Source of the DNA: a virus
Lineage: Duplodnaviria; Caudoviricetes
IMG/VR virus record: IMGVR_UViG_3300020046_004224
DNA length: 64,000 bases
Direction: 5' to 3' (one strand)
Made by a program: the position numbers and the translations under genes. Within the stretch, counting starts at the first letter, position 1. Every line of letters starts with the position of its first letter. Below, in pieces: positions 11,972 through 58,019 of the stretch. The notes below the pieces were generated by a model. It ran no database searches. It saw nothing but the letters and a program-made list of their open reading frames with translations, and was not told where the DNA came from.

Positions 11972-12099
11972 AAACAATTTTAGACGTTAGATATACTCTA
12001 TATTAGCTAATCCTTAAAGAAACATATTGGGAGTTTCAAAATACTGACGAAATAATCAGAAATATTAGAGTAGGGGTGACAAAACGGAAATCCCCAATA

Positions 12100-12228: not shown

Positions 12229-12239
12229 AATAATTAAAC

Positions 12240-12404
12240 GCTCTTGTGTCTAATAACGTAGCCGTTACGTAAAATGTACAATGCATGGTATATGCAAAAC
12301 GGACACTCTGAAAGGCCGAAACAGAAATCTAGAAATATGTTACGGATAAAGGGGTTGTATATGAAAAGGATGGTAAGCTAGCTCGAACCTAGCCAAGGGC
12401 ACCA
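12240..12404 (+). ncRNA. oversized tRNA-like RNA (165 nt, CCA end)
   Basis: acceptor GCTCTTG/CAAGGGC-ACCA, T-like arm GCTAG-CTCGAAC-CTAGC, expanded interior. Confidence 0.65.
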
Positions 12405-12416
12405 ATTTTAAAAGTA

Positions 12417-12767
12417 ATGAAACCGAAGATTATAGGATACGAAAAAGATGGTAAATTCTATGGGGTTGCCACACATTTAAGAGGAGTCTATATTAGCAGC
12501 GGCGATATTAATATCTATTATGGTAATGATGTCAGACTTCTAAAAGATTTCGAATCCGCTAAACTTTTAGTTCAAGGTAAGGTTTATAGAGAAGGAACAT
12601 ATTTAAAACTGACTGAAAAAGAATTAGGATCATTTGGACGAGGCCGATTGTTTATATCAACTATTAAAAATGCTAAAGAATTCGAGATTACAAATAAATA
12701 TCCTAGTGATTCTACCGGAACAGTTGCACTGAGAGCATCATTTAAATTGACAAAGGATAGTAAGTAG
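12417..12767 (+). CDS. hypothetical protein inside the ncRNA array
   Basis: 116-aa ORF. Confidence 0.6.
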   Translation: MKPKIIGYEKDGKFYGVATHLRGVYISSGDINIYYGNDVRLLKDFESAKLLVQGKVYREGTYLKLTEKELGSFGRGRLFISTIKNAKEFEITNKYPSDSTGTVALRASFKLTKDSK

Positions 12768-12775
12768 TGTAAAGT
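12747..12775 (+). promoter_or_regulatory. sigma70 promoter for the second ncRNA sub-array
   Basis: TTGACA-17nt-TAAAGT directly before unit 4. Confidence 0.7.
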
Positions 12776-12782
12776 AAAGATA

Positions 12783-12840
12783 GAAGGACAGACAGCAAAT
12801 TAACACTTTTTATATGGTTTAAAAAACAAAGTGTCCTTCG
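12783..12840 (+). ncRNA. ACAGCAA RNA unit 4
   Basis: stem GAAGGACA/TGTCCTTC, ACAGCAA, small AU hairpin cargo. Confidence 0.7.
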
Positions 12841-12844
12841 GATA

Positions 12845-12966
12845 AGGTTCAAATCAGCAATACAATACAAAAACTCTTATTACGAACAAGCCGATCCAGT
12901 GCAATCCTGGTAATTGTGTAAGTCATCTACAAGTCCTAGTGGACAGGAAAAAGATACATGAACCTG
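12845..12966 (+). ncRNA. TCAGCAA RNA unit 5 (degenerate permuted tRNA-like)
   Basis: stem AGGTTCA/TGAACCT; CCAG-TGCAATC-CTGG T-like arm then TCCT-AGTGGAC-AGGA D-like arm. Confidence 0.7.
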
Positions 12967-12969
12967 AAA

Positions 12970-13029
12970 AAAACATTAACAGCAAAACCCAAAGGTTATC
13001 GAAGTTCAATTCTTCAAAATAATGTTTTG
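12970..13029 (+). ncRNA. ACAGCAA RNA unit 6 (mini tRNA-elbow cargo)
   Basis: stem AAAACATTA/TAATGTTTT; AACC/GGTT hairpin plus GAAG-TTCAATT-CTTC T arm. Confidence 0.65.
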
Positions 13030-13033
13030 TACA

Positions 13034-13169
13034 AAGTCATCAACCGCAATTATAACTTCTAAAGCAAAATCGCCGCCGAAAGGCTTTCGGGTTCAAGTCC
13101 CGACATAACCTTAACTGGCTGTGGTGAAATTGGTAAACACGGCGAAAAAGAAAACAAAATGGTGACTTG
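13034..13169 (+). ncRNA. ACCGCAA RNA unit 7 (permuted tRNA-Leu-like)
   Basis: stem AAGTCATCA/TGGTGACTT; TCGCC/GGCGA, V arm GCC-GAAA-GGC, T arm TCGGG-TTCAAGT-CCCGA, D arm GTG-AAATTGGTAAA-CAC. Confidence 0.85.
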
Positions 13170-20868: not shown

Positions 20869-21762
20869 ATGCTCTACAACACACGCATTGCCCCATCGCC
20901 AACAGGATTCATTCATCTTGGTAACATCCGCACGGCATACCATAACTGGCTTGCTGCACGATCAACCGGGGGGAGGTTTGTTCTACGTATTGATGATACT
21001 GATAAAGCTCGTAGTGAAGAACAGTATGTTGATAAAATCTATGAAACTTTCCAATGGCTAGGACTTGATTATGATTCCACATTTCGCCAAAGCTCACGTT
21101 TAGATTTCTATAAAAATCTTGCACATAGGTTGATCAAAGCAGGACTTGCCGAAGAAATCGAAGGTGGTGCAATCCGATTGATTGTTAACTATAAAATTCC
21201 AGAATCTTGGACAGATATTATTGCGGGCAATGTCACCACATCTGCAAAAGATTTAGATGTTTTGAACAATATCATCATCATTCGCAGTGATCAAAATCCT
21301 ACATACAACTTTGCAAGCATTGTCGATGATATGACAACAGAGGTGAATTTGATCATTCGTGGAACTGATCATATCTCAAATACCATCAAACAGCTTGCAA
21401 TCATCGAAGCATTTAAACAATTAGAACATCCTGCGATTGGTATCTTATTTGATCGAGAAGTAAAATTTGCGCATGTCGGATTGGTATTTGAAAAGGGTAA
21501 GAAACTGTCAAAGCGTGACGGCTCAAGCAACTTCGATACACATAGAGATAACGGCACTGATCCTGATGCTATTCTTAACTGGATTCTTCGACTTGGTTGG
21601 AGTCCGTCTGATGCGAATTTCGATGCAAAAGAACCGATTATTACCAAAGACCGTGCCAAGGAAATTTTCTGGACTGATGGCTCTATGAGGAATTCATCCG
21701 CTAGTCTGGATATGAATAAACTGAATTTTTACAACAAAAAATACAAAAACCTAAAGAAATAA
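20869..21762 (+). CDS. glutamyl-tRNA synthetase catalytic domain only (GluRS/GluQRS-like)
   Basis: TRIAPSPTG, HLGN, LRIDDTD, RGTDH, KLSKR; no anticodon-binding domain. Confidence 0.88.
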   Translation: MLYNTRIAPSPTGFIHLGNIRTAYHNWLAARSTGGRFVLRIDDTDKARSEEQYVDKIYETFQWLGLDYDSTFRQSSRLDFYKNLAHRLIKAGLAEEIEGGAIRLIVNYKIPESWTDIIAGNVTTSAKDLDVLNNIIIIRSDQNPTYNFASIVDDMTTEVNLIIRGTDHISNTIKQLAIIEAFKQLEHPAIGILFDREVKFAHVGLVFEKGKKLSKRDGSSNFDTHRDNGTDPDAILNWILRLGWSPSDANFDAKEPIITKDRAKEIFWTDGSMRNSSASLDMNKLNFYNKKYKNLKK

Positions 21763-39452: not shown

Positions 39453-40694
39453 GTGATGAGAAAATCATGGCCTAAAACATTGGAAGATGTTAAAGTATTG
39501 CTACCCGATTATATAGATATTAAGGATGAAACCTATCAAGGATTTCATAAATCTGCAACATTTATTGATAAGGATTATAATACAGAATTTATAAGAACTG
39601 TTAGATATGTAGTGGTGTATAAATCTGGCTGCAACGAAAGACAAAAGAACCATCGCCAAGATCAAAAATTATATTATTCAACCGAATATATACAGGACAC
39701 ATGTAACAGTGTTCGTTCTAGAAAAGAATTACAAGATAAATTTCCGACAATATTCAATTATATTAAAAATAATGATATACCATTCAACTTGTATTGCTCC
39801 CATTTTATTAAAAGCAATTCATCCAGGGGCGAAGAAATAACCAAATTAATAGCACAAAAATTACTACATCCACATCCATTTATCGAAAATTGTCGAGATG
39901 CTATTCCTTGTTATAGGGCAGAACTGGATATATATTTTCCAACATTGAAAATAGCGTTTGAATATAATGGGTGGTATTTTCATAAAAAGGAACATACCAT
40001 GAATAAAGATACCGTAAAGAAAATCAAGTGTGCCGAAAATGGTATTCTGCTACTGGTTATAAATGAATCCCGAGAGGGTATTGAACATACTAAGGATATA
40101 ATAGTTTATATAAAACAGTGGTTCATTCAAAACATTGATAAAATAAACAATTATTGTAATATATTATATCACCCATTAGACATTAATTCTTTAGATATTT
40201 CTATCGAAGATGTTTATAAACATTTAACCTCTCTGGACGATATTAAATCTTCTATAAAAGAGTGTTCAAGTCTTACCGAATTTAAGGTGAAACACAAAAA
40301 TAGCTGGAACATTTTACGCTATAATGATTTATTATACTTGTTAAATGATCTTCCTATTATCAGAGATTATAATAAATATACGGATGAGGAATTTATCCAA
40401 AAAGCAACTACAGAATTTACGTCGTATGCCGATTTTATCAGATCAAAACTTTTTAAAAAGCTTATCAATAATCAAAACAGAAGAAAAATATTGGATACTA
40501 TAAGAGATATATTCCCTAAATTTACCCATAACAAATACCATTGGTCCGCATTTTCCGATTTTGAATTAATAAATTTTATTGCAAAGAAATTCTCTTCTTA
40601 TAAAGAATTTTCCAAAAACAAGCCTCTTTATAAGAAATGTCATAAGAGAGGTTTAGTTAAAACTATTAAAATTAATTTTAGTAGTTTTCTCTAA
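39453..40694 (+). CDS. putative homing endonuclease (PD-(D/E)xK/Vsr-like)
   Basis: ELDIYFPTLKIAFEYNGWYFH...D..K...C; repeated helical DNA-binding units. Confidence 0.75.
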   Translation: MMRKSWPKTLEDVKVLLPDYIDIKDETYQGFHKSATFIDKDYNTEFIRTVRYVVVYKSGCNERQKNHRQDQKLYYSTEYIQDTCNSVRSRKELQDKFPTIFNYIKNNDIPFNLYCSHFIKSNSSRGEEITKLIAQKLLHPHPFIENCRDAIPCYRAELDIYFPTLKIAFEYNGWYFHKKEHTMNKDTVKKIKCAENGILLLVINESREGIEHTKDIIVYIKQWFIQNIDKINNYCNILYHPLDINSLDISIEDVYKHLTSLDDIKSSIKECSSLTEFKVKHKNSWNILRYNDLLYLLNDLPIIRDYNKYTDEEFIQKATTEFTSYADFIRSKLFKKLINNQNRRKILDTIRDIFPKFTHNKYHWSAFSDFELINFIAKKFSSYKEFSKNKPLYKKCHKRGLVKTIKINFSSFL

Positions 40695-41334
40695 TATGTT
40701 TCTCATATCTTTTACGAACAATTGTTTTTAAATTATATCCTTTATCTTCGATTTGTGGAATTAGATTATTTCGTAACCAGTTTCGACGATATGTTTCATC
40801 AGTATTGGTTTCATCTTCTACAACATATTTCTCCAAATCATGTTCTTTGACAAAAGCCCGAAACTCTTCCTTTTCATTTAGAATAAATGGGCGAATAATA
40901 GTAAGACCGAAATCTTTATATTCGGTAACAAGGGGGACTGGGAGGTATTCCGGTACTCCGTTTAAACAATTATACATGTAATTTTCACATGCATCGTCGA
41001 TGTGATGACCTGTGATAACGTGTCCCATTCCAGCCATTGCTTTATAACGCAATGTTCGTAATTCCGCCTCTGTGGTATGAAAATGTTCAGAAGTATCTAA
41101 TCTCCTTTCCCGCCAAACAAGACCAATATTAAAATCAATACAGAAATCAACAACTGCTTTTTCCATGAGATCGTTCTGTGGACGCAGTTTATGATTGAAA
41201 TGAAAACAATTAACATTGATCTTAGGGCATTTCATTTTAAGAAATGCCGCAATAGCAAGGCTATCAACCCCGCCACTACATGCAACGGTTACTTTGTTGT
41301 TTGCTAATTTCAGAATTTGAGGAATGAATCTCAT
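40678..41334 (-). CDS. tilS: tRNA(Ile) lysidine synthetase, minimal catalytic domain
   Basis: SGGVDS PP-loop, HFNHKLR, R.LRY, GHHIDD, RP, DETN....RRN.LR. Confidence 0.88.
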   Translation of the reverse strand: MRFIPQILKLANNKVTVACSGGVDSLAIAAFLKMKCPKINVNCFHFNHKLRPQNDLMEKAVVDFCIDFNIGLVWRERRLDTSEHFHTTEAELRTLRYKAMAGMGHVITGHHIDDACENYMYNCLNGVPEYLPVPLVTEYKDFGLTIIRPFILNEKEEFRAFVKEHDLEKYVVEDETNTDETYRRNWLRNNLIPQIEDKGYNLKTIVRKRYEKHIRENY

Positions 41335-43205: not shown

Positions 43206-44177
43206 ATGATATTGCGGGATGCAACTATAAGTATGTATATGTGGTTTGATAAATATATTTTCTATGATAAATTAGTATCTCCTATAAACGGATATGAATG
43301 TAAGCGGTTATCGTGCCAAAATATTAAAAATTTTGGGTTTTCTTCGATGGAGGAATTTCATAAAGAATATCCAGGATTTCCTACAAAATGTGAGAAACAA
43401 AAAACAATATATAAAGATTGCTTACAAGCAATGAGTGTTATAGGCAATGAAGTGGCTCGACAAAATAAAATTAAACGAATAGAAGAATATAAAAAATCCC
43501 CTAAGTTATGTATCAAATGTGGTAAAAGCTTGTCATACGAGCAACTTTTAGAAAACGGGGTATATTGTGGAAGAGTATGTGCCAACGAAAATAATAATGG
43601 CAAAACCTTATCCGAAGAAACAAAACAAAAAATAAAACAAAGTTTAAGAGAGCATTATGATGCCGATGGTATTGTGCTCAAGAAAAATACAACAATTCAG
43701 AAACAATGTATTATGTGTAACAAAAATTTCTATTGTAATTACAATTCCAATGCAAAAACATGTAGTTCAATATGTCGGACTGCTATTTGTACAAAAAAGT
43801 CGCGTGAAAATCCTAACTGCGGAGGGCAAAAACGGACACATAGAACATACTTCAATAATATTATAGGAGATTCTGCTTATTTAGAAAGTTCATTTGAAGT
43901 TCGTCTGGCGACCATCTTAAATAATATGAATATATTATGGACACGCCCTTCTTATCTGTGGTATCTAGATAAAACCACAAATAAAAGACGATATTATCCA
44001 GATTTTTACCTACCCATTTATAATGTGTATCTTGATCCTAAAAATGATTTCTTAATCAAGACTGATAGTAAAAAGATTGAAAGTTGTGCCGAATATAATA
44101 ATGTCAAGATATTCATTCTTTCGGATAATATGATAAACGAGTCATATATAACAGAGTTTATTCAGAAAATCTCATAA
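43206..44177 (+). CDS. putative homing endonuclease
   Basis: zinc fingers, NUMOD-like SEETKQKI, ESSFE...YYPDFYLP...DPK. Confidence 0.75.
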   Translation: MILRDATISMYMWFDKYIFYDKLVSPINGYECKRLSCQNIKNFGFSSMEEFHKEYPGFPTKCEKQKTIYKDCLQAMSVIGNEVARQNKIKRIEEYKKSPKLCIKCGKSLSYEQLLENGVYCGRVCANENNNGKTLSEETKQKIKQSLREHYDADGIVLKKNTTIQKQCIMCNKNFYCNYNSNAKTCSSICRTAICTKKSRENPNCGGQKRTHRTYFNNIIGDSAYLESSFEVRLATILNNMNILWTRPSYLWYLDKTTNKRRYYPDFYLPIYNVYLDPKNDFLIKTDSKKIESCAEYNNVKIFILSDNMINESYITEFIQKIS

Positions 44178-46464: not shown

Positions 46465-46552
46465 TGGTGGGACAACCTAGAGTTGAACTAGTTGCCGCCG
46501 CCGCACTTATTAATGGCAATAGATTTACAGTCTACCGTGCGGGGATTATCCC
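46465..46552 (-). tRNA. tRNA-Tyr(GTA), D-armless
   Basis: GTAGA-CTGTAAA-TCTAT; acceptor GGGATAA/TTGTCCC-ACCA; no D hairpin. Confidence 0.75.
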
Positions 46553-46584
46553 TTTTGATACAATATCATATACTTATAGTTCTG

Positions 46585-47142
46585 TCAACCATAATAGTAA
46601 TCTTTCCATCTATCTCCTAAAATATCATATAAATTTTTCAGATCAGATTTTAAAATCTTATTAGTGTGTACTAGTCTATGACAGTTTGGACATAATAAAG
46701 TTAAATTTGTGTGGTTGTGCGGGTCGGGTATTTTTCGACCGTTGATGTGGTGAATGTCGCACGTTGATTCATTCCATGAACAAATCGAACATCCTATGTT
46801 TAATCTTTTTAAGATTTTAGAGACTGTTCTCTTGGAGAATTCTAGTAAAGATGTCGCTGTATCGGCTTTAAATTTATTTTTCGTTCCTCCACCAACCCTT
46901 TTCGATCTTTCGTCTGTTGATAACAGATTGTTATATTTCTTGCGAACAACGTTTTTATAATCCCCTCTTTCGTGCTTTAGGCTAATAGCATCTGCTATCT
47001 TTTTATTGTGTTCCTCCGAATGAACAGGTCTTTTTCTATTACTCGCCTTCGCTGCGCACGATAAATTACAAAATCTTTTATATGATTTATCCCAATTTGT
47101 TTTTGGAATAAATTCTAGACCACATTCTTCACATATTTTCAT
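46585..47142 (-). CDS. HNH homing endonuclease
   Basis: CSIC...DIHH...N...LCPNCHRLVH. Confidence 0.85.
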   Translation of the reverse strand: MKICEECGLEFIPKTNWDKSYKRFCNLSCAAKASNRKRPVHSEEHNKKIADAISLKHERGDYKNVVRKKYNNLLSTDERSKRVGGGTKNKFKADTATSLLEFSKRTVSKILKRLNIGCSICSWNESTCDIHHINGRKIPDPHNHTNLTLLCPNCHRLVHTNKILKSDLKNLYDILGDRWKDYYYG

Positions 47143-47739: not shown

Positions 47740-47817
47740 CAGTGATTAAAGAGGCTCGAACTCCTTATTTCGGACTGACTATATATTGCCGCGTAATGTC
47801 CCTTATACTAAATCACC
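47740..47817 (-). pseudogene. tRNA-like gene with aberrant anticodon arm
   Basis: acceptor GGTGATT/AATCACT, D and T arms present, 15-nt anticodon loop, no CCA. Confidence 0.55.
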
Positions 47818-47906: not shown

Positions 47907-47999
47907 TGGCGGATAGCAGAATATTCGAAATCCAACCTTGGATTGACCAAGATCACACTCCTTAGCAGGGAGGTCTACTGCCTTTGTAGTTTACTATCC
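47907..47999 (-). tRNA. tRNA-Ser(GCT)
   Basis: CTCC-CTGCTAA-GGAG, long V arm, G73-CCA. Confidence 0.8.
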
Positions 48000-48695
48000 A
48001 TTAAAATTCTTCACCAAGGTATCATACACTTCTGAAAATGTCAACCCGTCTTTTAACTTTAAAATATCACCTTTTCGTAATACATAAAGTTTATGAGGAA
48101 AACTTTTCCATTTACATCTATCTTTTTCTGTTTCATACCCTTTAACTTCTACATAACATCCTAAAGTCTCTATGTAAAAATCAGGCGTATAATGACTGTC
48201 GATTCCGACCTCATTTGTATAAGGAAACCTTCTAGTATTTCGATCCCATATTAAATCAGAATTGTTCAATGCTTTTACAACTTCAACTTCCCAAGTTCCA
48301 TCTACTGATATATCGCACTGCTTTGATGTATTATACAATGTAATCTTTTTACATCTTCCGGCAGTAGATACCCAACCGTTCTCGTAACGTCTAAGCATAT
48401 CAAATTTTCTATCGCTCTTAAATTTAATCTTTTCTAATTCAGTCATCCTACCCCACATCGAACCTCTTTCGACTAAAGATTCTCGCATCTTATTCCTCAT
48501 ATTTTCTGCTAACTCAACTCCGTAGATTTCATCATACGTCTTACCTTTCCTACATGACGGAATAATATGCTTATATCCTTTCGGAAGTCCAGTTTTATGT
48601 TTGATTTTATCAGGATTTTGATCACACGACATTTCATGTGCTTTCATAGACCCTGCGTTATTAATAGTTCTTTGACAAAATTTACATTCCATCAA
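47994..48695 (-). CDS. putative homing endonuclease (PD-(D/E)xK)
   Basis: DGTWE...YTPDFY....YVEVKG. Confidence 0.75.
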   Translation of the reverse strand: MMECKFCQRTINNAGSMKAHEMSCDQNPDKIKHKTGLPKGYKHIIPSCRKGKTYDEIYGVELAENMRNKMRESLVERGSMWGRMTELEKIKFKSDRKFDMLRRYENGWVSTAGRCKKITLYNTSKQCDISVDGTWEVEVVKALNNSDLIWDRNTRRFPYTNEVGIDSHYTPDFYIETLGCYVEVKGYETEKDRCKWKSFPHKLYVLRKGDILKLKDGLTFSEVYDTLVKNFNG

Positions 48696-49510
48696 ATTAC
48701 TTATTCAAATTCCTGCGAAAAACCAACATTCGCGTCTAATCCAATTTTATGAATACATTAATGCACCAAGAATAAGTCCTACGATAGACATAACCCCAAC
48801 AAACAAGAGTCCTCCACAAAAGGCTAAACCATGCCAATTAGAATAATCCACATTGTAATCTTTTTCCAAATCGTTGAATGTATAATGCAGTAGTTTTTTC
48901 ATGGGTTAATATTAACGCAGTTATTGTTTGTTGTCAACGAGATATTTCAGGGATAATGAGTTTCTTTACAAGCCTTCTCGATAAGTTTAATCCTGTCTAC
49001 TACATCCCCATGTTTCCGTAACTTCTGCAAACATACTCTCATATCAATTATATGATTTTCAAGAAGTTCTGCCCACCATTTACCCTTGGGGGTATTTCTA
49101 CCTTGTTTAGCATCATGTTCAAATAACAGTTCAGTTGTATTATCGATGCCTATTTGGATATTTCGAATAATCTCACCGATTTCAGTACTTTCTATACTCA
49201 CTGTCAAAGGTTCATAATCCTTTGGTGGAAGTAGAATATCAGGCATCTTTTTAGGGAAACATTCCGAACCATCGAAAAAATCTCTTTTGACGGAATCTTT
49301 CATCCAGTGTGTATTTGAATAATCACTCATATTTTATTAATGATTTAAATTCCAAATCTATCTCTTTTATTCGACTATTAATTAATTTAGTACGCCGTTG
49401 TCCGTAATCGGAAACCATATCTATTAATATTTGATATAGTTCCTTCCTCTCATTTGCAAGAGTATACACTAATGCTGATGTTGGATTATCTGTTTTCATA
49501 AAATAATTAT

Positions 49511-49668
49511 AGGATAATAACAGGACTCGAACCTGTAAGGGACTTTCGTCTTCCATATATTTCTATACAGCCATAGTTAATTCTTTGACCTGGGGTACCG
49601 AACCTTTCGGTTTATTTATTCAGCATCTCTACACGATCCCCGCGTTTGCCATTTCGCCACACTATCCT
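49511..49668 (-). ncRNA. oversized tRNA-Leu-like RNA with the anticodon arm replaced
   Basis: D arm GCG-AAATGGCAAA-CGC, T arm ACAGG-TTCGAGT-CCTGT, acceptor GGATAGT/ATTATCC, ~80-nt insert. Confidence 0.65.
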
Positions 49669-49670
49669 AT

Positions 49671-49744
49671 TGATGTCCGTACGGTGCTCGCAACCGTTTC
49701 TCGTCCTTACCAAAGACGTGCATCACTACATATGCTTACAGACC
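49671..49744 (-). tRNA. tRNA-Thr(GGT)
   Basis: CGTCT-TTGGTAA-GGACG. Confidence 0.75.
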
Positions 49745-49992
49745 ATGTAATCTTCATCTTTCTAAAAAACTGTCTTTTGTGGAATGTTATGTGGTTTGCC
49801 TGTAACATCCTCTATTTTATCAAGTCTAAATCCGGCCCCTCGTCTTTTATTTCCAAAAATTTCTTTAGCAGATTTTAAATCTTCCGCAATTATTCTTCGA
49901 ATAGGCCAAGATGAACGGCCAGACCATTTACCTTTATGATAACTGTAGTGAAAAAGAAATACTCTCATTTTGTCTTTTATTTTATAGTTTTT

Positions 49993-50080
49993 TGGCGGCG
50001 AGATAGAGATTCCAACTCTAGACACCTTTAACAGTGCAGGCATTTTCAAGATGCTTTCTTCGTGCTTCCAGACCCTCGCC
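49993..50080 (-). tRNA. tRNA-Ser(TGA)
   Basis: GCAT-CTTGAAA-ATGC, long V arm, G73-CCA. Confidence 0.75.
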
Positions 50081-50103
50081 ATTTTATTCTACTTATTATT
50101 TTT

Positions 50104-50215
50104 TGGTGGACTATTTGAGATTTGAGATTTGAACTCATTCAGGCTGCGCGAACCTTTTCCAATTGTGTCATAGAGACTGCCTCTACTAATACCGTTGCAG
50201 GTAATTAACTAGCCC
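50104..50215 (-). ncRNA. aberrant tRNA-like RNA
   Basis: acceptor GGGCTA/TAGTCC-ACCA, T loop TTCAAAT with a 7-nt tandem duplication, no clear anticodon arm. Confidence 0.45.
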
Positions 50216-50389
50216 AATACTCTAAACAATAACCCTTGATTGTGCTATTGTCAAGAACTGAATATCTCAGGTAATGCAATAAAGAAACAATGTATTAAAA
50301 GAAATATCACATTTCCGACTAATGGTTATTGGCAGAGGATTCGTGCAGGTTATTCTCATGAAGAGGCACTTAATATTCGTCGAAATTAA

Positions 50390-50464
50390 TGGGGTTCTTG
50401 CCGAGGATCGAACTCGATTATATCGCTCCACAAGCGAGTGCATCACCAAAATGCTTCAAAAACC
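50390..50464 (-). tRNA. tRNA-His(GTG)
   Basis: loop TTGTGGA; G-1:C73; CCA. Confidence 0.85.
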
Positions 50465-50639
50465 ATCTTTAAATTAAACAATATGTTGTATACCTCGAAG
50501 AACTACAACTATACACGTCTCAACTTTCGAAGCAGGATGAACGCCTCTTCTATTATCTTACGTGGTAAATCCTGAGATTGTTCATAATCTAGATATATTG
50601 TTATCGTAATATAACACTGGTGCTTCTTCTGGTCAAGCA

Positions 50640-51578
50640 TTATCTGTAGAGATAATCTGGTAGATTGAAATGTTCTTTAACTTTATTCGCAGCGTCTATC
50701 TCAGAAGAAAATCTCAAATAGACGATCCCCTTCTTATCTTTCTTCAACGAAAATATCCATTCATCTCTCTTCGAATCATACGAAACATATTTGTATTTTG
50801 ATTTTGGGATATAAACTGTTTTGATTTTTTTATTGATTGCTTTATTCTGTCTAGAAAATGGTGAAATATTTTTACTGTCAATATTATAATCTTTACACCA
50901 TTTTTTAATAGTATTTCCAGTCTTTAACCCAAAATTCTTTGCCACACATTCCATTGATTTAGTAGTCAATAATAAAATCAATTCCTCTTTGGATGGACGG
51001 ACAGCTTTACGTCTACGCTCTCCATCACATGCGATACACTTACCTCTTTTATTATTTTTACAAATAACATTATCACACTTTTCACATCGAGGCAGAGTTT
51101 TCTTATGCCTTTTTCCTGCATAAGTCTCTGTCTGTGAATGACAGTTGGGGCACAAGAATGATAAATTGGATATTGTGTTATCGTCTGATATTCCGTTTTT
51201 ATGTTCCAGTTGTAGAGTGAGTGATTTATTATTCCATTCTGGAAGAATCCCACATTCATCACATATATATGGTACTAAATTAAATCTTAAAACGTATATC
51301 TTTACTTGATTTCTTGATATATATAACTTATTATCTATAATATCTCTAAACTTAGCTTCCGTCATCGTTCGAGTCAAAATAGATGATTTCTCTCTATTAA
51401 GAAAGTGGGAATGATCTACATTCAGAGCTTTCATTCGTTGTTTACATGTAATAAAATTATTACCTTTATTTTGTAATCCGAATGTTCGCAACAATTCCGA
51501 CATCGTTTTTGAATTTTTGACTCTTGTGATGAACTCATCATCAGGTATTGACCATATTATACTAGTTCTTTTTCTCAT
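50640..51578 (-). CDS. HNH homing endonuclease (C-terminal AP2-like domain)
   Basis: LQLEHKNG...N...LCPNCHSQT; SKYKYVSY...W...F.SE.DAA. Confidence 0.85.
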   Translation of the reverse strand: MRKRTSIIWSIPDDEFITRVKNSKTMSELLRTFGLQNKGNNFITCKQRMKALNVDHSHFLNREKSSILTRTMTEAKFRDIIDNKLYISRNQVKIYVLRFNLVPYICDECGILPEWNNKSLTLQLEHKNGISDDNTISNLSFLCPNCHSQTETYAGKRHKKTLPRCEKCDNVICKNNKRGKCIACDGERRRKAVRPSKEELILLLTTKSMECVAKNFGLKTGNTIKKWCKDYNIDSKNISPFSRQNKAINKKIKTVYIPKSKYKYVSYDSKRDEWIFSLKKDKKGIVYLRFSSEIDAANKVKEHFNLPDYLYR

Positions 51579-51639
51579 TACACTTACTTACATAAGTAGT
51601 AATAGATTGTATACATGTATTATTGGTTCGTTACTTTTT

Positions 51640-51714
51640 TGGTAGCCTCTCCCAGATTCAAACTGGGAATGTCGCAGTCAAAGTGCGAAGTGTTGTCAAT
51701 TACACCAAGAGGCT
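51640..51714 (-). tRNA. tRNA-Gln(TTG)
   Basis: TCGCA-CTTTGAC-TGCGA; CCA. Confidence 0.85.
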
Positions 51715-51729
51715 ATCTTTTTACTAAAT

Positions 51730-51803
51730 TGGCAGCGAATGAAGGTATTGCGCCCTCTTTCCAGGGGTTGGAAGCCTGTACATTACTTTTATGTTAACTC
51801 GCT
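51730..51803 (-). tRNA. tRNA-Trp(CCA)
   Basis: CAGGC-TTCCAAC-CCCTG, A1-U72, G73. Confidence 0.7.
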
Positions 51804-51989
51804 ATTTCTTTTCTTTACTTTACACTATATACTTATCTTTGTCAACCTCTTTTGATATGTTATCTAAAATGCTCTTGGTTATCTTATTTTGATTTTCGAT
51901 AAATAATTTAAACAATTCATGGGCCTGTCCCTCGGTTACAGAACGGTCTATATCTGATGGACAATCGGGGATAGGTGTTGTAAATTCAA

Positions 51990-52250
51990 TCATATTTTTA
52001 TAAAATCTTCGTTATCATATTTACCGTGTACGATATTCATTGCGAAAGCAAGACCGACAGGACCGCTCATAGGCTGAACACTGACGATTTCGTGTATCAA
52101 AAATTCAGGACTCATGCGCCGAATCATAGGAATCATGATTTTAGAAAAATCTGGAACTGCGGGTTCTACTACTTTTGGTAGTAACGGTGCAACAACAGTC
52201 GCAACCACGGTTCCGAATAATTTCTTGAAAAATGTACGTCTTGAATTCAT
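51990..52250 (-). CDS. Tat-like leader fused to a major capsid protein (gp23) Gol-region fragment
   Basis: MNSRRTFFKK leader; IMIPMIRRMSPEFLIHEIVSVQPMSGPVGLAFAM. Confidence 0.7.
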   Translation of the reverse strand: MNSRRTFFKKLFGTVVATVVAPLLPKVVEPAVPDFSKIMIPMIRRMSPEFLIHEIVSVQPMSGPVGLAFAMNIVHGKYDNEDFIKI

Positions 52251-52255
52251 TTTTA

Positions 52256-52338
52256 TGGAGCTAACGGTCAGATTCGCACTGACGGTGTGGTATTCATTCT
52301 TACAAGGAATGCGCTTTCGACTTCTCAGCCACGTTAGC
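52256..52338 (-). tRNA. tRNA-Thr(TGT)
   Basis: CATTC-CTTGTAA-GAATG; CCA. Confidence 0.82.
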
Positions 52339-52354
52339 AATTTTATTAACTTTT

Positions 52355-52431
52355 TGGTACTCCTGACAAGATTCGAACTTGCATCAAAATCGCCCTTAAC
52401 GATTCGCCTCTACCAATTGGGCTACAGGAGC
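52355..52431 (-). tRNA. tRNA-Leu(AAG), short variable loop
   Basis: AATCG-TTAAGGG-CGATT; CCA. Confidence 0.85.
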
Positions 52432-52436
52432 ATTTA

Positions 52437-52838
52437 CTACTCAAACTTTAACTCTTTTTCTTCTTTTGTCAATGAGATATTCTTCTCAAAAGGATACTCG
52501 TTGTAAAATATAACATTATACCACCATCCGATATATTCCTGTTCAGGACATCCACCATCATCGTCATAAGGCAATGCATCATACAACTCATGAACCTTTT
52601 CTACATTCTTTTCGAGGAATGCATCCAATATATCCAATTGTCTTTGAAGTTGATCACCAGTAAAATTTTTCGCCAACCGCTGTCTTTCCTGTTCGGGAAA
52701 GAACTCATATTCCTTTGTGATTGTTTTTACAATTTTCATTTTTTTCATATATTGGTTTATAAGGTCTATTACAAATAGATCAGACTCCTTCCAACTTTCT
52801 CTCGCATCATTCGCAAAACATATATCGGATATACTCAT
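52437..52838 (-). CDS. hypothetical protein
   Basis: ORF between tRNA genes. Confidence 0.55.
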   Translation of the reverse strand: MSISDICFANDARESWKESDLFVIDLINQYMKKMKIVKTITKEYEFFPEQERQRLAKNFTGDQLQRQLDILDAFLEKNVEKVHELYDALPYDDDGGCPEQEYIGWWYNVIFYNEYPFEKNISLTKEEKELKFE

Positions 52839-52841
52839 ATT

Positions 52842-52916
52842 TGGTGCGGTATGTCGGAATCGAACCGACATATGAAACTTGGAAGGCTCCCATAATAACC
52901 ATTATATTAATACCGC
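52842..52916 (-). tRNA. tRNA-Gly(TCC)
   Basis: GGAGC-CTTCCAA-GTTTC; CCA. Confidence 0.88.
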
Positions 52917-53002
52917 ATAAAATTGTGCGCTCTACTTTATCCCCTATCACTGTCGAATATCACAGTATAGATTCGGGGGTTGAAACACAAATTCGATTTC
53001 AT

Positions 53003-53075
53003 TATCAAAGGTGAGATTTGAAACTCACACATCCCCTGCAAGCAAGAGGGCATTCTCCATTAAATTACTTCGATA
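53003..53075 (-). pseudogene. pseudo-tRNA with a 9-nt anticodon loop
   Basis: ATCGAAG/CTTTGAT acceptor, CCCT-CTTGCTTGC-AGGG, 8-nt T loop, no CCA. Confidence 0.5.
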
Positions 53076-53589
53076 AAATTATTTATACTTCAATTGTCAC
53101 ATACTCAACAACCTTTACATAAGACTTTTTTTGTTTTACCATGATAACTTTAACCTCCTCAAGGGCAGTTTTAACCGCTTCCATACTATAAAACAAAGTT
53201 GGAGATGGACTTGACCAACCATCTCTTAATGGTACAAATTCTGATGCAACAACCCAAAACAATCCTAGCCATAATTGTTTCACAAAGTAAACCGTGTTTC
53301 CTCTGTCATTTAACTGTTCGTATATTCTAAATTTCTTCTTCATATTTTTGTTAGTTTAACGTAGCACAACCGTTGATGATGTCAAGAGACTTTGTAAACC
53401 AATGATTCGCCATCTTTAACAACTTCTATCAAGTCTTTCATATCAAATCGTATAGACATCTCAGGAATACCAAACGGACTAACATCCACAGACCCGTCTG
53501 ATTTTCTCCAATGCTCGACGTATGTACTGAACCATCTTCCCCTCGGAACGCACCAAAGAGTACCTTTAAATTCATCGCCCTTCATAACA

Positions 53590-54198
53590 TTATTCATGTG
53601 TGCCTCCGTCTAAGAACATTTTCCATTCATCACGCATAAAATTGAAGATCATTCCATTTTTTGGCTTAACAGGCTTTCTCACAAGCTTTAAACCACATTC
53701 TTTCGGAGTTCTGTCACCTTTCCAAATATTGAGCGCCTTATCACACGTCGCCAAATTTTCCCAACTGTTCTGACCGCCTCTTGAGCTAGGCAAAATATGA
53801 TCGATACTGACAGATTCTCTATCAAGTTTCTTACCAGTGTATTGACAGGTGTAGTCATCTCTTTGCCATATATTAGACTTGGTAGGAAATACAACTTTCT
53901 TAAAAATGATTTTGTTGAAACTTGCACATACAATGATTGCAGGAAGACGAAATTCTTCTTTTGAAGTTTTCACAGATTCGTCATATGATCGAACTGGTAA
54001 TTTTCTCCAATCTTCGAAATCACGAACAACTTCCATATATTCGATTTTATTCTTGTTTATATTTCCGTCTTCGTCGATTTCATAAGAAATATCAATAGGG
54101 AATGCCGCACCCGATATTATATCAATCATGGCGGTTTTCCAGTTACTAACTCCACATGGAAAAAATCCCTTTGTTAATTTTAATATTTCTTGTTTCAT
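53590..54198 (-). CDS. HNH endonuclease
   Basis: RDDYTCQYTG, SIDHILP.SRGG.NSWENL...N..K.DRTP. Confidence 0.88.
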   Translation of the reverse strand: MKQEILKLTKGFFPCGVSNWKTAMIDIISGAAFPIDISYEIDEDGNINKNKIEYMEVVRDFEDWRKLPVRSYDESVKTSKEEFRLPAIIVCASFNKIIFKKVVFPTKSNIWQRDDYTCQYTGKKLDRESVSIDHILPSSRGGQNSWENLATCDKALNIWKGDRTPKECGLKLVRKPVKPKNGMIFNFMRDEWKMFLDGGTHE

Positions 54199-54723
54199 TG
54201 ATTACTCTACATTAAATCCTTTCATCTGTCAACAGCATTCGCCGATTATTCCGCGCACGGCTTGATATATACTAAAGAATAAATTCTTCCTACCGACTCC
54301 TAGTTTATGTATATCCCAATAATGTGTTGAAATTTATTCGTCCAAAGGTTTTAATTCTAAACTAGAATAAACCTCTTCTCTAACTTTTGAATCCATCATC
54401 ACTGCGAATGCAATATTTAATAATTGTATTCTAATACATGTGAGTTCGTAACTAGAAAATCCATGGCAGTCTCTGAGGTCTTCTAAAATTTTATCGATTG
54501 TTGGTGTTTTCATTTCCAAACTTTCTTATAGATTCTCATTTTTGTTTCTATGCTTGGCGAATCGCCTTCATAGTAGCAACCACCATAATCAGTTTCAGAA
54601 CTAATATCTATTCGAACATCAGCATTTTCAAAAACAGTATAACGGTATGAATCGATAATAGTCTCTGAAACTAGTTCTAGATGTTCGGTGAAGGGTTTTT
54701 TTGTAGTTTTCTTTTTTGCCATA

Positions 54724-55176
54724 TTATTGTAACTTACTTCCTACCAATGTTGAAATTGTTCTGTTATCAGTTGCACCATTTACAAGCTCTGAAACACGTT
54801 TGATAACCTTACCCATATCCTTCTTAGATGTGGCTCCAAGCTGTGCAATAACACCGTCAACGAGGATTTCGAGTTGCATATCAGTCAGTGCAGGAGGAAG
54901 ATATTCGCGGAGTAATTGCATCTCCAAAAGTTCCGTTGCTGCTAATTCGATTCTGTTTTCCTTTGTAAAAATATTAAAGGAATCTTCTCGTTGTGCAACT
55001 TGTTTACGAATAATACTAAGTGCCTCAGTATCCTCTAAGGGCGTATTAACATTTCCTTTGATAATTGCGGCATTTGTGAATGCATTTTTAAGTTGCCGCA
55101 ACATTGCAAGCTTGGTTTTATCAGACTTGCGCATTGCATCCTTGATATCTTCGTTAATTTGTTCTTGTAGTTTCAT
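54724..55176 (-). CDS. GatB/YqeY domain protein
   Basis: KDAMR, QREDS...F....R.ELA..E, YLP, KDMGKV. Confidence 0.9.
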   Translation of the reverse strand: MKLQEQINEDIKDAMRKSDKTKLAMLRQLKNAFTNAAIIKGNVNTPLEDTEALSIIRKQVAQREDSFNIFTKENRIELAATELLEMQLLREYLPPALTDMQLEILVDGVIAQLGATSKKDMGKVIKRVSELVNGATDNRTISTLVGSKLQ

Positions 55177-55462
55177 CTTTTAATATTTTTTCAGTTTTCT
55201 TTTTTCACATCGTCTGCCGCAAACTTTACATTTTCCATATTGTCCAATATGAGTCAAATCGCATCTACACCAGAAATATTCTTTCTTTGCCGTGAGACTC
55301 TTTTCTCTATTGGTTTTGGAATATTCCATAAATTTACCATTCTCGAAAAACGGCATCCCAATCGACAGATTCTACCTCTTCTTCGGTAAAGAATAAACTC
55401 AGAGTTATTGCTGGTTCATCTCTAGATTCTATTTGGGTTGATTCATTCATACTTTAAAAAAT

Positions 55463-55619
55463 TGGTCGAAAAGGATAGGGGATGTCCTATCGTTTCGATG
55501 ACTTTCATCATCACATCATACACTCCTTGCCATCCGGTAAGGGTTAGCGCCAGTAACGGGTAGGATTTCTATCATAGCTAATAGAAATATACTGCTTGCC
55601 ACACTCAGCTACTTCTCGA
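55463..55619 (-). ncRNA. oversized tRNA-like RNA (157 nt, CCA end)
   Basis: acceptor CGAGAAG/CTTTTCG-ACCA, D arm GCT..GG..AGC, GATAGG/CCTATC arm, multi-hairpin interior. Confidence 0.6.
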
Positions 55620-55629
55620 TTTTAAAAAT

Positions 55630-55705
55630 TGGTGGGCTAGACACGACTTGAACGTGCAACTTAGAAATTAAAAGTTTCTTATTCTACCAATTGAATTACT
55701 AACCC
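55630..55705 (-). tRNA. tRNA-Lys(TTT)
   Basis: AGAAA-CTTTTAA-TTTCT; CCA. Confidence 0.9.
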
Positions 55706-55722
55706 GATTCTATACTATACAC

Positions 55723-55768
55723 TGCATTGAACTTAAATCAACAAAAACATTGATTTAAGTTCAATGCA
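55723..55768. repeat. perfect 19-bp inverted repeat carrying back-to-back promoters
   Basis: TGCATTGAACTTAAATCAA-8nt-TTGATTTAAGTTCAATGCA. Confidence 0.8.
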
Positions 55769-55784
55769 TCGCTAAATACTTAAT

Positions 55785-56822
55785 ATGAAAAAATGTTTAA
55801 TATGCGATTTATCTCTTAGTGGCAAACAACGATTATTCTGTTCCAGATTATGTAAAGACAAACACTATGCAACCATGGATGATTCTTTAGACGCACCTCT
55901 TATAGAAGAAATAAAAATGTTGTATAATAGTGGTTTAAGTTTTCGACATATAGCAATACTAAAAGGTATTCCCAAACTCGTTCTTTGGAAATTAGGGCGA
56001 ACGGGGGTGGTCCCTTCCCGAACACGGGGTCAACAAGCAACTTTAACCAATACAGGACGCACACAAAGTCCAGAATCTAGGGAGAAAATATCCAAGGCAA
56101 GAAAAAAATTCTTATCCGAGAATCCAAATATGGTGCCGTATAAACTAAATCATAAGCACACCAAAATATCTTACCCAGAACAATACTTCATAGAATGTTT
56201 TCAAAACAAATTCGTCTATCAGCACAGAGTTTCAACATATACCTTAGATTTTGCTGATATCGAAAATAAACTGGATATAGAAATTGATGGATGTCAACAT
56301 CGTTTAGACCCTAAAATTGTTAATCATGATTGGAAAAGAAACATATACTTAACTGAACATGGATGGAATGTTTTACGAATAAACTGGTCAATCTTTAAAA
56401 GTCTTCCACCAGAAAACCAACGAAATATAGTGAAAGATATACTACAGGATATTGTTCCTAGTTCTTCGTCGATATCGTTCTATCCAGCAAACATTGCTAT
56501 ATCTAATGAAGAATTTATGATAAATATTCAGAGATTAAAGAATCGTAATATATGTCCTATATGTGGTTCGCATAAATGTGCAGAATCTATAAACTGCTCC
56601 AAATGTGCAGGCAGCACCCGAGTTAAAATACCCTGGCCCTCTGTTGAAGAAATGTCAAAGATGATCTGGGAAATTCCTGCAACTCGGATTGCACAAAATA
56701 TGGGAATATCAGACAATGCTGTTATCAAATTCTGTCGAAAACATAATATCTCAAAACCAGAGCGTGGATATTGGCAAAAACTATATGGTGGAGACACGGA
56801 GAGTCGCGCTCCGAATTCCTAA
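55785..56822 (+). CDS. putative homing endonuclease (DUF559/Vsr-like)
   Basis: SYPE, YTLDFA, IEIDG.QH, D.KRN.YL...GW.VLRI; zinc finger and HTH. Confidence 0.8.
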   Translation: MKKCLICDLSLSGKQRLFCSRLCKDKHYATMDDSLDAPLIEEIKMLYNSGLSFRHIAILKGIPKLVLWKLGRTGVVPSRTRGQQATLTNTGRTQSPESREKISKARKKFLSENPNMVPYKLNHKHTKISYPEQYFIECFQNKFVYQHRVSTYTLDFADIENKLDIEIDGCQHRLDPKIVNHDWKRNIYLTEHGWNVLRINWSIFKSLPPENQRNIVKDILQDIVPSSSSISFYPANIAISNEEFMINIQRLKNRNICPICGSHKCAESINCSKCAGSTRVKIPWPSVEEMSKMIWEIPATRIAQNMGISDNAVIKFCRKHNISKPERGYWQKLYGGDTESRAPNS

Positions 56823-56860
56823 TTGCAAGTTAGGTGTGTTACTGTTAGCACTATGCCCCC
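56786..56860 (-). tRNA. tRNA-Ala(TGC)
   Basis: CCTAA-CTTGCAA-TTAGG; G3:U70; CCA. Confidence 0.85.
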
Positions 56861-56871
56861 TTATATCTTTA

Positions 56872-56946
56872 CGGTCTAGATAGTGAGTACCGCCCTCACA
56901 TCCACTGAATCCCAAATTCAGGGCATTACTTGTCTGCCATATCTAG
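56872..56946 (-). tRNA. tRNA-Pro(TGG)
   Basis: CTGAA-TTTGGGA-TTCAG; C1-G72, A73. Confidence 0.8.
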
Positions 56947-57009
56947 ATTAAATCTTTCGGAAAATTATAAACTTAATATTCCCTGCCCTTGTCAATTCAA
57001 GTCGTTATG

Positions 57010-57084
57010 TGCCGATTGCGGAAGTCGAATCCGCATTTTCCAGTTTGAAAAACTAGTGCTCTAGTCCAGTTAAGCTAAATCGGC
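57010..57084 (-). tRNA. tRNA with TTC (Glu) anticodon on an atypical body
   Basis: CTAGT-TTTTCAA-ACTGG; body GCCGATTTAGCT... Confidence 0.7.
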
Positions 57085-57095
57085 TTTTGTGAAAT

Positions 57096-57191
57096 TGGTG
57101 GGCGGGAATTCTCGCTATTATGAAATACGTTTCACGATACTTTCAGCCATACGAGCTTAGGAAATCATGAGGTACTTGTCAAGCGCCGCCC
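57096..57191 (-). ncRNA. CCA-terminated RNA with acceptor stem but non-tRNA interior
   Basis: GGGCGG/CCGCCC-ACCA; no canonical T or D loop. Confidence 0.5.
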
Positions 57192-57226
57192 ATTTAAAAC
57201 TATCTTTTTAATTGATTATATTTTAC

Positions 57227-57448
57227 AAAAGGTGTGCTTCTACGCCAAAGAAGAATCAAGCCTTACCAGTTACGGGGTACTCTTTTACTTTCCACGGTTA
57301 GACGGTATCCAACTTGAGTATCAATATCTAACTTTGATATACTCAAGTCACCACAATCATTAGTTACTTAAAACTAACTCGTTGGCATCGGAGGCCCGCG
57401 TTTCGCTTCACTCATTAAAGATGGCTGCTTCTAAGCCAACTACCTTTT
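57227..57448 (-). ncRNA. 23S rRNA H43-H44 (uL11-binding GTPase-associated centre) mimic RNA
   Basis: GTTGGCTTAGAAGCAGCCATC and GCGTAGAAGCACAC enclosed by AAAAGG/CCTTTT, ~165-nt insert. Confidence 0.8.
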
Positions 57449-57461
57449 TATAAAAAAAACT

Positions 57462-57577
57462 TTCTGATTATAGGACTCGAACCTATACCTACTTAATGTC
57501 GTATCTAATACTCTAGTCGGAATTGCACCGATTTCCGCCCCTCGACGGGGTTGTGCTGCCATTAACACCAAATCAAA
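57462..57577 (-). ncRNA. tRNA-like RNA with two T arms
   Basis: acceptor TTTGATT/AATCAGA, D arm, CCCC/GGGG arm, TCGG-TGCAATT-CCGA and ATAGG-TTCGAGT-CCTAT. Confidence 0.55.
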
Positions 57578-57580
57578 AAT

Positions 57581-57655
57581 TGGCGTCCCCTGTTGGAATT
57601 GAACCAACGTTTATAGTTCGAGAAACTATTATCCTAACCGCTAGACGAAGGGGAC
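57581..57655 (-). tRNA. tRNA-Glu(CTC)
   Basis: GTCCCCTTCGTCTAG Glu body; ATAGT-TTCTCGA-ACTAT; CCA. Confidence 0.88.
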
Positions 57656-58019
57656 ATTTGCTACTACTCACTAAGATACATCAGGTTTCAGAAGAGTCAA
57701 GAAGTTTTTGAAATTCTCGGAGCTTCCAGATCATACTCAATGCATACTTCATTTTGAGTTCTTCTCTTGAAAACATTTTTGGGTCTTCTGCTATCTTGTA
57801 TTCGCCACCAGAATGATTGCAATATTCTTTCCAAGAAACTCTCTTCATTTCAGGAGATTCATCATAATCAAATTTAGGAAATGCACCATAACTATAGAAT
57901 CCAACATGCTTGCCCACCTGAACATCACATTCTTGATGCTCTAGCAAATCTTTCTCTAGTGCATTTGCTGCAAAATATGCTAATAATATGTTTTCATTCA
58001 TTCTATCATTTCTTAATTT

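Follow-up and report, generated by a model that had tools for sequence, protein, structure and literature searches.

Candidate non-decoding tRNA-like RNAs among the tRNA genes of a large environmental phage

The stretch of viral DNA considered here, referred to throughout as the window, is 64,000 nucleotides (nt) of IMG/VR record IMGVR_UViG_3300020046_004224 (Duplodnaviria; Caudoviricetes) and is identical to part of a 190,581-bp JGI metagenome contig (L097). It belongs to a large phage, the window encoding a ribonucleotide reductase, a thymidylate synthase, a clamp loader and a Ro60-like DUF2828/DUF7788 protein. From ~43.0 to 59.7 kb on the minus strand runs a tRNA cluster of roughly 36 genes, with small open reading frames (ORFs) and homing-endonuclease genes in between. 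An earlier note on this DNA had picked out seven oversized or anticodon-less tRNA-like elements within the cluster, here named E1 to E7, and all seven are present where it placed them, on the minus strand and closely packed among the tRNAs:

49511-49668, minus strand: E1, a 158-nt tRNA body with an 8-bp acceptor stem and a D arm with GG; no CCA encoded
50104-50215, minus strand: E2, a 112-nt class-II-like tRNA mimic, as judged from its folds and a homologue in the relative L001
55463-55618, minus strand: E3, a 156-nt cloverleaf-like RNA with a 7-bp acceptor stem followed by A-CCA; fold z-score -2.67
57096-57191, minus strand: E4, a 96-nt irregular hairpin RNA with a stem GGGCGG/CCGCCC and then ACCA; fold z-score -3.08
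57462-57577, minus strand: E5, a 116-nt tRNA-like RNA; no CCA encoded
47740-47817, minus strand: E6, a 78-nt tRNA-like RNA with a 7-bp acceptor stem (G1.U72), a D arm and a canonical T arm
53003-53075, minus strand: E7, 73 nt and tRNA-like, with D and T arms and an acceptor stem of 7-8 bp; no CCA encoded

Once the tRNAs that standard tools overlook are counted, 20 of the 20 amino acids are served by the cluster, and E1 to E7 are therefore surplus to a working tRNA set. Only 3 nt separate tRNA-Glu(ctc) from E5 and 4 nt tRNA-Thr(ggt) from E1; there are 11 nt each between tRNA-Lys(ttt) and the start of E3, between tRNA-Ile and E6 and between the CCA of E4 and tRNA-Glu(ttc), and 21 nt between E2 and tRNA-Ser(tga). 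It had been claimed that the elements retain an acceptor stem and for the most part the D and T arms, which holds for E1, E2, E5, E6 and E7; D and T arms are both missing from E4, and E3 has the cloverleaf layout with, at the T position, a hairpin whose loop is ACAUCC and not a T loop. The closing stems are of 8 bp in E1, 6 bp plus G.A in E2, 7-8 bp in E3, 9 bp in E5, 7 bp in E6 and 7-8 bp in E7, that of E4 being only 6 bp plus a C.C mismatch. A hairpin scan for the canonical T arm (5-bp stem, loop T[TG]C[AG]ANN) identified it in E1, E2 and E6 and, as had been noticed before, twice in E5 (57516-57532 and 57470-57486), and the arm of E7 matches but for a loop of 8 nt. Three elements do encode a CCA, present as ACCA after the closing stem of E2, E3 and E4.

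The anticodon arms are, as proposed, replaced or enlarged, with none of the seven forming a 5-bp stem and a 7-nt loop that has U33 and a readable triplet. The anticodon position is capped by a 4-5-nt loop in E2, E3 and E5, carries a 9-12-nt loop in E6 and E7, and in E1 is interrupted by about 83-92 nt. When compared with the Rfam tRNA model RF00005 (cut-off 29 bits) E7 passes at 37.3 bits and E1 fails at 26.7 bits, and there was no Rfam match for E2, E3, E4, E5 or E6 at E values up to 10. No modules common to the inserts were found within the window. A single tRNA-scaffold superfamily was considered and rejected, the likeness between T arms (16/17 between E2 of L001 and a 59-nt element of the same relative, 15/17 between E1 and E5) being too short as proof, and so was the idea that E1 to E7 are rRNA mimics, their 9-nt matches to E. 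coli rRNA being at chance level and a true match to 23S lying only in a neighbouring spacer (57420-57445).

Comparison was made with relatives from four lineages that have syntenic clusters, fetched via an in-cluster YqeY-domain protein and the ORF adjoining it; the identity given is that of the YqeY-domain protein:

L001 (= L002, L003), from IMG/VR: 72%
L101, from Logan (read set ERR12084917): 72%
L099, L100, L104 and L105, from Logan (read sets SRR6986807 and SRR6986812 for L099 and L104): 91%
L102, L103, L106 and L107, from JGI: 87%

A megablast of positions 49000-58000 against GenBank phages gave zero near relatives, a metagenome scan with the YqeY protein returned 80 loci, all at 55% identity or less and none with the elements, and scans of IMG/VR with DNA patterns for the E5 and E2 cores recovered the L001 lineage only.

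The consensus fold of E5 consists of six helices: the 9-bp closing stem, a D arm, a capped stem (CCCC/GGGG, 4 bp) with a loop of 5 nt in the window and 5-6 nt among homologues, an extra hairpin resembling a T arm (UCGG-UGCAAUU-CCGA), a small hairpin held within the 14-mer UAGAGUAUUAGAUA, and the T arm. Homologues are found at L001:8120-8238 and L106:1491-1608, and also in L107, and their place in L001 and L106/L107 is always between tRNA-Glu and tRNA-Pro; across the three lineages compared the loop UGCAAUU and the 14-mer are invariant. Covariation across related phages, which had been named as a check, is seen both in E5, where RNAalifold gives 28 pairs of which 6 have compensatory changes, and in E2, where there are 3. 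In E5 the paired cells reach 98.8%, as against 35-55% in controls with the partners slid, and in column shuffles the observed value was attained in 0 of 500 on four of five measures and in 115 of 500 on the remaining one, further pair types. With a covariance model the homologues score 115-141 bits, and a search of 0.9 Mb of fetched phage loci revealed nothing beyond a diverged E5-like element at the matching place in L101 (L101:8401-8538, 22.5 bits, with an 8-nt loop). No antisense targets of the 14-mer above chance were found within the window. The spacer that runs from tRNA-Glu(ctc) to E5 in L106 (L106:1372-1495, plus strand, 124 nt) has a closing stem of at least 10 bp, GAACACAAAA/UUUUGUGUU, and is absent from the window.

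The acceptor of E2 is GGGCUA/UAGUCC, with G3:U70, A73 and the encoded CCA, and is followed by a D-like hairpin, a capped 6-bp stem at the anticodon position, a variable-arm hairpin and the T arm. Its homologue, L001:15379-15485, is 70% identical and the acceptor, G3:U70, A73 and ACCA are all invariant between the two, whilst the loop of the capped stem is 5 nt in the window and 4 nt in L001. tRNA-Ser(tga) lies downstream of E2 in both phages, at the 21 nt given above in the window and at ~175 nt in L001, where a small ORF lies between. Just upstream of E2 is a site identified by consensus match only; with it, the minus strand of the cluster has about ten that show an exact TTGACA-17:

50226-50254, minus strand: promoter-like TTGACA-17-TATTGT

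The anticodon arm of E7 carries a 9-nt loop on a 4-bp stem, and ARAGORN reports the element only at a lowered threshold. L099:3562-3634 is 98.6% identical to it. In L102 (L102:2798-2865) the acceptor, D and T body is identical at 50 of 52 positions, with one base of the D arm differing between lineages, and the 21-nt anticodon arm has been exchanged for an unrelated 16-nt hairpin, CCUU-GUGAA-AAGG, with a 5-nt loop. As the DNA around E7 is only about 74-82% identical to the relative, it would seem that the body has been under selection and the decoding arm has not, and this is the clearest sign in the comparison of such selection. A tRNA-like RNA of 59 nt at L001:11337-11395 lacks an anticodon arm altogether. 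It scores 42 bits as an Rfam tRNA and shows G3:U70 and A73, with a promoter-like site directly on one side of it and an ORF on the other.

Judged by sequence comparison, E5, E2 and E7 are thus real, conserved, non-decoding tRNA-like RNAs, and they have probably been kept for a job outside decoding. The argument that selective loss of the decoding arm is not what random decay would give stands for E7, with its body kept and its arm exchanged, and for E5 and E2 with their compensatory changes. It does not extend to E1, E3, E4 and E6, for which no homologue was found at the syntenic sites of the fetched relatives, E6 having the look of a degenerate tRNA and E4 not being tRNA-like. The related suggestion of a tRNA scaffold that carries a functional insert finds backing in E5 and E2 only, the invariant T-like loop and 14-mer of E5 in three lineages being what a functional insert on a tRNA frame might be expected to look like, and again does not extend to E1, E3, E4 and E6, whose inserts show no sign of function.

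Membership of the set is plausible for E1 and E3 without comparative support. E1 has a canonical T arm (ACAGG-UUCGAGU-CCUGU) and, at the place of the anticodon loop, an insert of ~83-92 nt, depending on the ARAGORN cut or the stem drawn, that contains four small hairpins; its forced cloverleaf has an energy of -35.0 kcal/mol as against -39.8 kcal/mol for the minimum free energy fold (z-score -1.4). The sole relative contig that comes near E1 (L110) ends 150 nt before its position. The anticodon position of E3 is taken by a 10-bp stem that ends in a GCUA tetraloop. A D-like arm is present as well, the variable region is branched and 73 nt long, and the hairpin with the loop ACAUCC, of 6 bp, abuts the 3' strand of the acceptor. 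Neither L001, L101 nor L106 has E3 at the matching place, and in L001 tRNA-Lys runs straight to the downstream ORF with no E3 between.

The remaining two elements are of another kind. E4 is a separate, ACCA-ended structured hairpin RNA and not tRNA-like, and L106 has tRNA-Pro(tgg) at its place. E6 is probably a degenerate tRNA or pseudogene in decay, because its fold is weak (z-score +0.17) and the 3-bp anticodon arm carries a 12-nt AU-rich loop; ARAGORN finds it only at an 80% threshold, as tRNA-?(tata), and nothing comparable follows tRNA-Ile in L001 or L101.

Taking these elements together, we lean, if only slightly, towards a core set of E5, E2 and E7, probably with E3 and E1, that would be non-decoding tRNA mimics acting in trans as decoys or adaptors, with E6 most likely a case of decay and E4 standing apart. 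From the anatomy, the tight packing among tRNAs and the conservation with covariation of E5, E2 and E7 we infer the following course of transcription, processing, charging and action. The elements would share the transcripts of the phage tRNA operons, E2 alternatively using a sigma-70-like promoter of its own, and would be excised by the ordinary tRNA maturation enzymes, since what they retain are the parts those enzymes read, namely an acceptor helix on a T-position hairpin, a D/T elbow and an encoded or addable CCA. The mature RNA would then be the upper half of a tRNA that could read no codon, its anticodon stem being closed off with a 4-5-nt loop, blocked by extra hairpins or missing, and would accumulate as a tRNA-shaped RNA. 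With no codon read, the expected targets of action in trans would be proteins that recognise a tRNA by its acceptor end or elbow and not by its anticodon. Our best guess is that the RNAs serve as decoys or adaptors towards tRNA-binding factors of the host or the phage, such as toxins or enzymes whose target is the tRNA acceptor end, a role as aminoacyl carrier outside the ribosome being ranked second. E2, with its full alanine identity set (G3:U70, A73, CCA), could plausibly be charged by alanyl-tRNA synthetase (AlaRS), and the second T loop of E5 together with its invariant 14-nt single strand is predicted to be a likely binding surface.

A number of observations weigh against reading the elements as purposeful mimics. 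E1, E3, E4 and E6 lack homologues at the syntenic sites of the fetched relatives and may be recent debris. E2 is missing from L099, in the 91% lineage, and from L101, and is hence dispensable, and in the window it has a 7-nt tandem duplication (TCAAATC) adjoining the T arm, which distorts either that arm or its junction with the acceptor. The fold z-scores of E1, E2, E5, E6 and E7 are unremarkable, at -1.4 to +0.2. A 7-bp stem followed by NCCA is on its own at chance level, shuffled sequence giving about 60 per strand per 64 kb, and because of this the case for E3 and E4 is made from position, fold stability and lack of coding. Furthermore the comparative depth is small, at 2-3 distinct sequences per conserved family.

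Much of this can be put together as a different explanation, in which fast turnover of the cluster has left the elements behind as junk spacers and as tRNA pseudogenes in decay, with no function of their own. The lineage-specific elements, the weak fold and AU-rich expanded loop of E6, the duplication in E2 and the chance level of stem plus CCA are all as it would predict. So too is the dispersal among the tRNAs of six HNH, DUF559 or other endonuclease-like genes:

43206-44177, plus strand: endonuclease-like gene
46585-47142, minus strand: endonuclease-like gene
47994-48695, minus strand: endonuclease-like gene
50640-51578, minus strand: endonuclease-like gene
53590-54198, minus strand: endonuclease-like gene
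55785-56822, plus strand: endonuclease-like gene

The gene content of the cluster varies between close relatives, which fits turnover driven by endonucleases. In L110, an 80% relative, an IS605-type TnpB gene is present at a place where the window has none. What decay does not account for is that E5, E2 and E7 persist across lineages in which the adjoining YqeY protein is 72-91% identical, that they show compensatory changes with bodies conserved at least as well as the adjacent DNA, and that E7 changed only in its anticodon arm when random decay should strike acceptor, D and T arms equally. As an account of the whole set we consider it unlikely.

It could also be that the elements act solely in cis, as punctuation for processing, each being a minimal substrate for RNase P and RNase Z at which operon transcripts are cut and from which a roleless RNA is released, the model being the degenerate tRNAs of mitochondria. 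What is retained is essentially an acceptor-T minihelix, E3 makes do with a plain hairpin at the T position, and both E7 and the 59-nt element of L001 lie between ORFs and tRNAs, the latter between a promoter-like site and an ORF. A bare cleavage signal, however, would need neither a D arm that differs by one base between lineages, as in E7, nor the invariant T-like loop and 14-mer of E5, and E5 lies 3 nt behind a tRNA that already gives a processing site. This explanation is for these reasons markedly improbable.

A third explanation holds that the oversized elements, and E1 above all, are intron-containing tRNA genes that are spliced to give normal tRNAs. When introns are permitted ARAGORN does read E1 as tRNA-His(gtg) with an 83-nt insert; an 8-bp acceptor is a His-like trait, and genes for 8/4 tRNA-His are known in phages (PMC5389517). 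The reading requires, however, a cut inside the anticodon and a rebuilt stem with a C.A mismatch, a group I intron would be far larger than 83 nt, and the constrained fold of E1 has no bulge-helix-bulge motif. The earlier note had asked whether the inserts contain intron or ribozyme motifs, and had allowed that they might be ordinary introns; there was no Rfam match to either at E values up to 10, nor was an RNA ligase or splicing endonuclease found among the 46 window ORFs scanned (36 of them against Pfam). The phage moreover has a tRNA-His(gtg) already, and E1 was rejected as a paralogue of the local tRNA-His genes, there being no sequence relationship, whilst E2, E3 and E5 would be left after simple excision with no 7-nt loop usable as an anticodon loop. 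Splicing is therefore very unlikely, and the earlier note is not refuted on that score.

Finally, E2 resembles the tRNA-like domain of tmRNA in its conserved alanine-identity acceptor (G3:U70, A73, CCA), its T arm and its want of an anticodon, and might be taken for a miniature, Ala-charged rescue RNA with a short tag frame (AVSMTQLEKVRAA and stop), a reading that is barely credible and was rejected, given that the frame in L001 encodes another sequence with no Ala-Ala at its end, that substitutions there are spread over all codon positions and follow the pairing of the hairpins, that an open frame is unremarkable when about half of random 14-codon frames are open, that conserved tag frame and pseudoknots are lacking with no tmRNA match in ARAGORN or Rfam, and that even the shortest known tmRNAs are more than twice as long as its 112 nt. 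The correct explanation may vary between elements, some being mimics, others processing signals and others decay.

Other non-coding DNA in the cluster is also of interest. The spacer 57221-57455 (minus strand) between E5 and E4 contains a 26-nt core, 57420-57445, that is 96% identical to E. coli 23S rRNA 1055-1080 and includes 21 identical bases of the helix 43 loop in the GTPase-associated centre. L106 lacks this element, and in L001 and L101 another conserved RNA, of ~150 nt, is found nearby. Between the two tRNA-Glu genes of these two lineages there is a non-coding element of ~150 nt (L001:7804-7955 and L101:8171-8325, plus strand), highly similar in both and with no Rfam match, which makes it a further unclassified RNA of the cluster. 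A 48-nt non-coding block at 56959-57006 (minus strand) is 96% identical to L101:8565-8612, the proteins being ~72% identical; it has TTGACA and TATAAT-like hexamers with an over-long spacer and may be a phage-specific promoter or operator.

The trans-acting reading of the core elements could be carried further, to a kit of purpose-built mimics in which E2 would receive an amino acid and then serve away from the ribosome or be turned on a host factor and E5 would capture a host tRNA-binding protein through its invariant loop and 14-mer, these serving with the look-alike of the 23S GTPase centre and a Ro/Y-like array as RNA decoys against the translation apparatus or tRNA-directed defence. Such a kit is doubtful, slightly more so than the decay of pseudogenes, and is offered as a speculation.

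As for the tRNAs proper, default ARAGORN identifies 17 and Rfam supplies a few more, and lower ARAGORN thresholds add Cys, Asp, Ser(gga), Ser(gct), Trp, Ala and two Met tRNAs. The extra genes were recognised via lowered thresholds, synteny with relatives and reading by eye, and four were overlooked by both default ARAGORN and Rfam:

46469-46561, minus strand: tRNA-Tyr(gta), behind a TTGACA-17-TATTGT site
49673-49745, minus strand: tRNA-Thr(ggt), with the T loop TGCGAGC
49993-50082, minus strand: tRNA-Ser(tga)
~56878-56955, minus strand: tRNA-Pro(tgg), with the non-standard T loop GGCGGTA

L001:8044-8119 (plus strand) likewise has the form of a cloverleaf. Its acceptor is of 8 bp and followed by CCA, its loop CUUUUAA contains the anticodon UUU (Lys), its D and T hairpins are non-standard, and it is probably a rewired tRNA-Lys that the tools overlook. 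The phage also invests heavily in proteins of tRNA biology:

20869-21762, plus strand: glutamyl-tRNA synthetase (GluRS) catalytic core of 297 aa with no anticodon-binding domain; gltX_bact 261 bits, which is below the cut-off of that family, GluQRS models scoring lower still
40678-41334, minus strand: protein with a TilS N-terminal (lysidine synthetase) domain
54724-55176, minus strand: stand-alone YqeY tRNA-binding-domain protein, kept in the tRNA cluster of all relatives

What the core elements have in common is a design in which the upper half of a tRNA is kept and the anticodon is sealed or removed, and for three families there is evolutionary evidence of retention. Default tRNA finders overlook real tRNAs, and they also hide mimics of this sort. 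Concrete, testable candidates are E2, for charging by AlaRS, and E5, for a partner protein. Should the elements act as decoys, be it towards tRNA enzymes or tRNA-directed defence, they would represent a new class of phage counter-measure.

A number of known systems invite comparison. YrlA-type Y RNAs, which resemble tRNAs, are bound in bacteria and phages by Ro60/Rsr (Chen et al. 2014, PMC4201824). They too are non-decoding tRNA mimics with D and T arms and an elbow, and differ in that the window elements lie in tRNA operons, 35-45 kb from the Ro60-like gene (9531-11222), with no Rfam Y-RNA match for any of them. YrlA is permuted, its acceptor end being closed and its RNA ends lying in the Ro-binding stem on the anticodon side, whereas E1 to E7 have free acceptor-stem ends, three with CCA, and the parallel with the Ro array drawn in the earlier note is thus an analogy only. 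The same phage has non-decoding mimics with its Ro60-like gene, at 11.8-13.2 kb, and five T-arm-like hairpins in the RNA array after that gene, at 11906-13103 on the plus strand, fit this.

Phages also have 8/4 and 9/3 tRNAs and allo-tRNAs, for which regulatory, non-translational roles have been raised (Mukai et al. 2017, PMC5389517). Like these, some of the elements have long acceptors (8 bp in E1 and E7, 9 bp in E5), lie in phage tRNA clusters and are overlooked by standard tools. The known forms keep a 12-bp acceptor plus T branch and a normal anticodon arm, whereas E5 has 9+5 bp and E1 8+5 bp and both are without a working anticodon arm. Identity as YrlA-type Y RNA, tmRNA, allo-tRNA or intron-bearing tRNA was accordingly rejected. 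The mascRNA and the tRNA-miRNA units of murine gammaherpesvirus 68 (MHV68) are tRNA-like modules processed by RNase P and RNase Z that serve as handles for attached RNAs. The tRNA-Other of Bacillus cereus (PMC3399842) is likewise tRNA-shaped with no translation role, RNAs of this sort being either regulatory or processing handles. All of these come from different organisms and have different architectures, and neither tRNA-Other, mascRNA nor the MHV68 units are found in a phage tRNA array with capped anticodon stems. A literature search returned, among the papers it covered, no description of tRNA look-alikes with sealed anticodons in phages.

That phage tRNA operons contain small stable RNAs has been known since the 1970s, from work on T4, and two of those RNAs are the closest precedent. 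T4 rnaC (species 1 RNA, 139 nt) and rnaD (species 2 RNA, 119 nt), the roles of which are still unknown (PMC3014915), are situated inside the T4 tRNA operon next to tRNA genes and a homing endonuclease gene. Like the window elements they are non-tRNA RNA genes in such an operon with an acceptor-like stem. When rnaC is folded, a canonical T arm (CCGGG-UUCGAAU-CCCGG) abuts the closing stem and long hairpins stand at the places of the D and anticodon arms, which is the plan of E1, E3 and E5, and rnaD is like E4 in having no T arm and a gene region that ends in CACCA. The likeness is one of plan and not of homology; no sequence relationship was seen, though no test aimed at one was made, and the host lineage is different. 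The importance of the likeness is that a T4-like plan recurs in an unrelated large environmental phage. The window elements follow the plan of rnaC and rnaD as different families, and what is new in them, not being seen in the T4 RNAs, are the capped stems at the anticodon position, the double T arm of E5 and the alanine set of E2.

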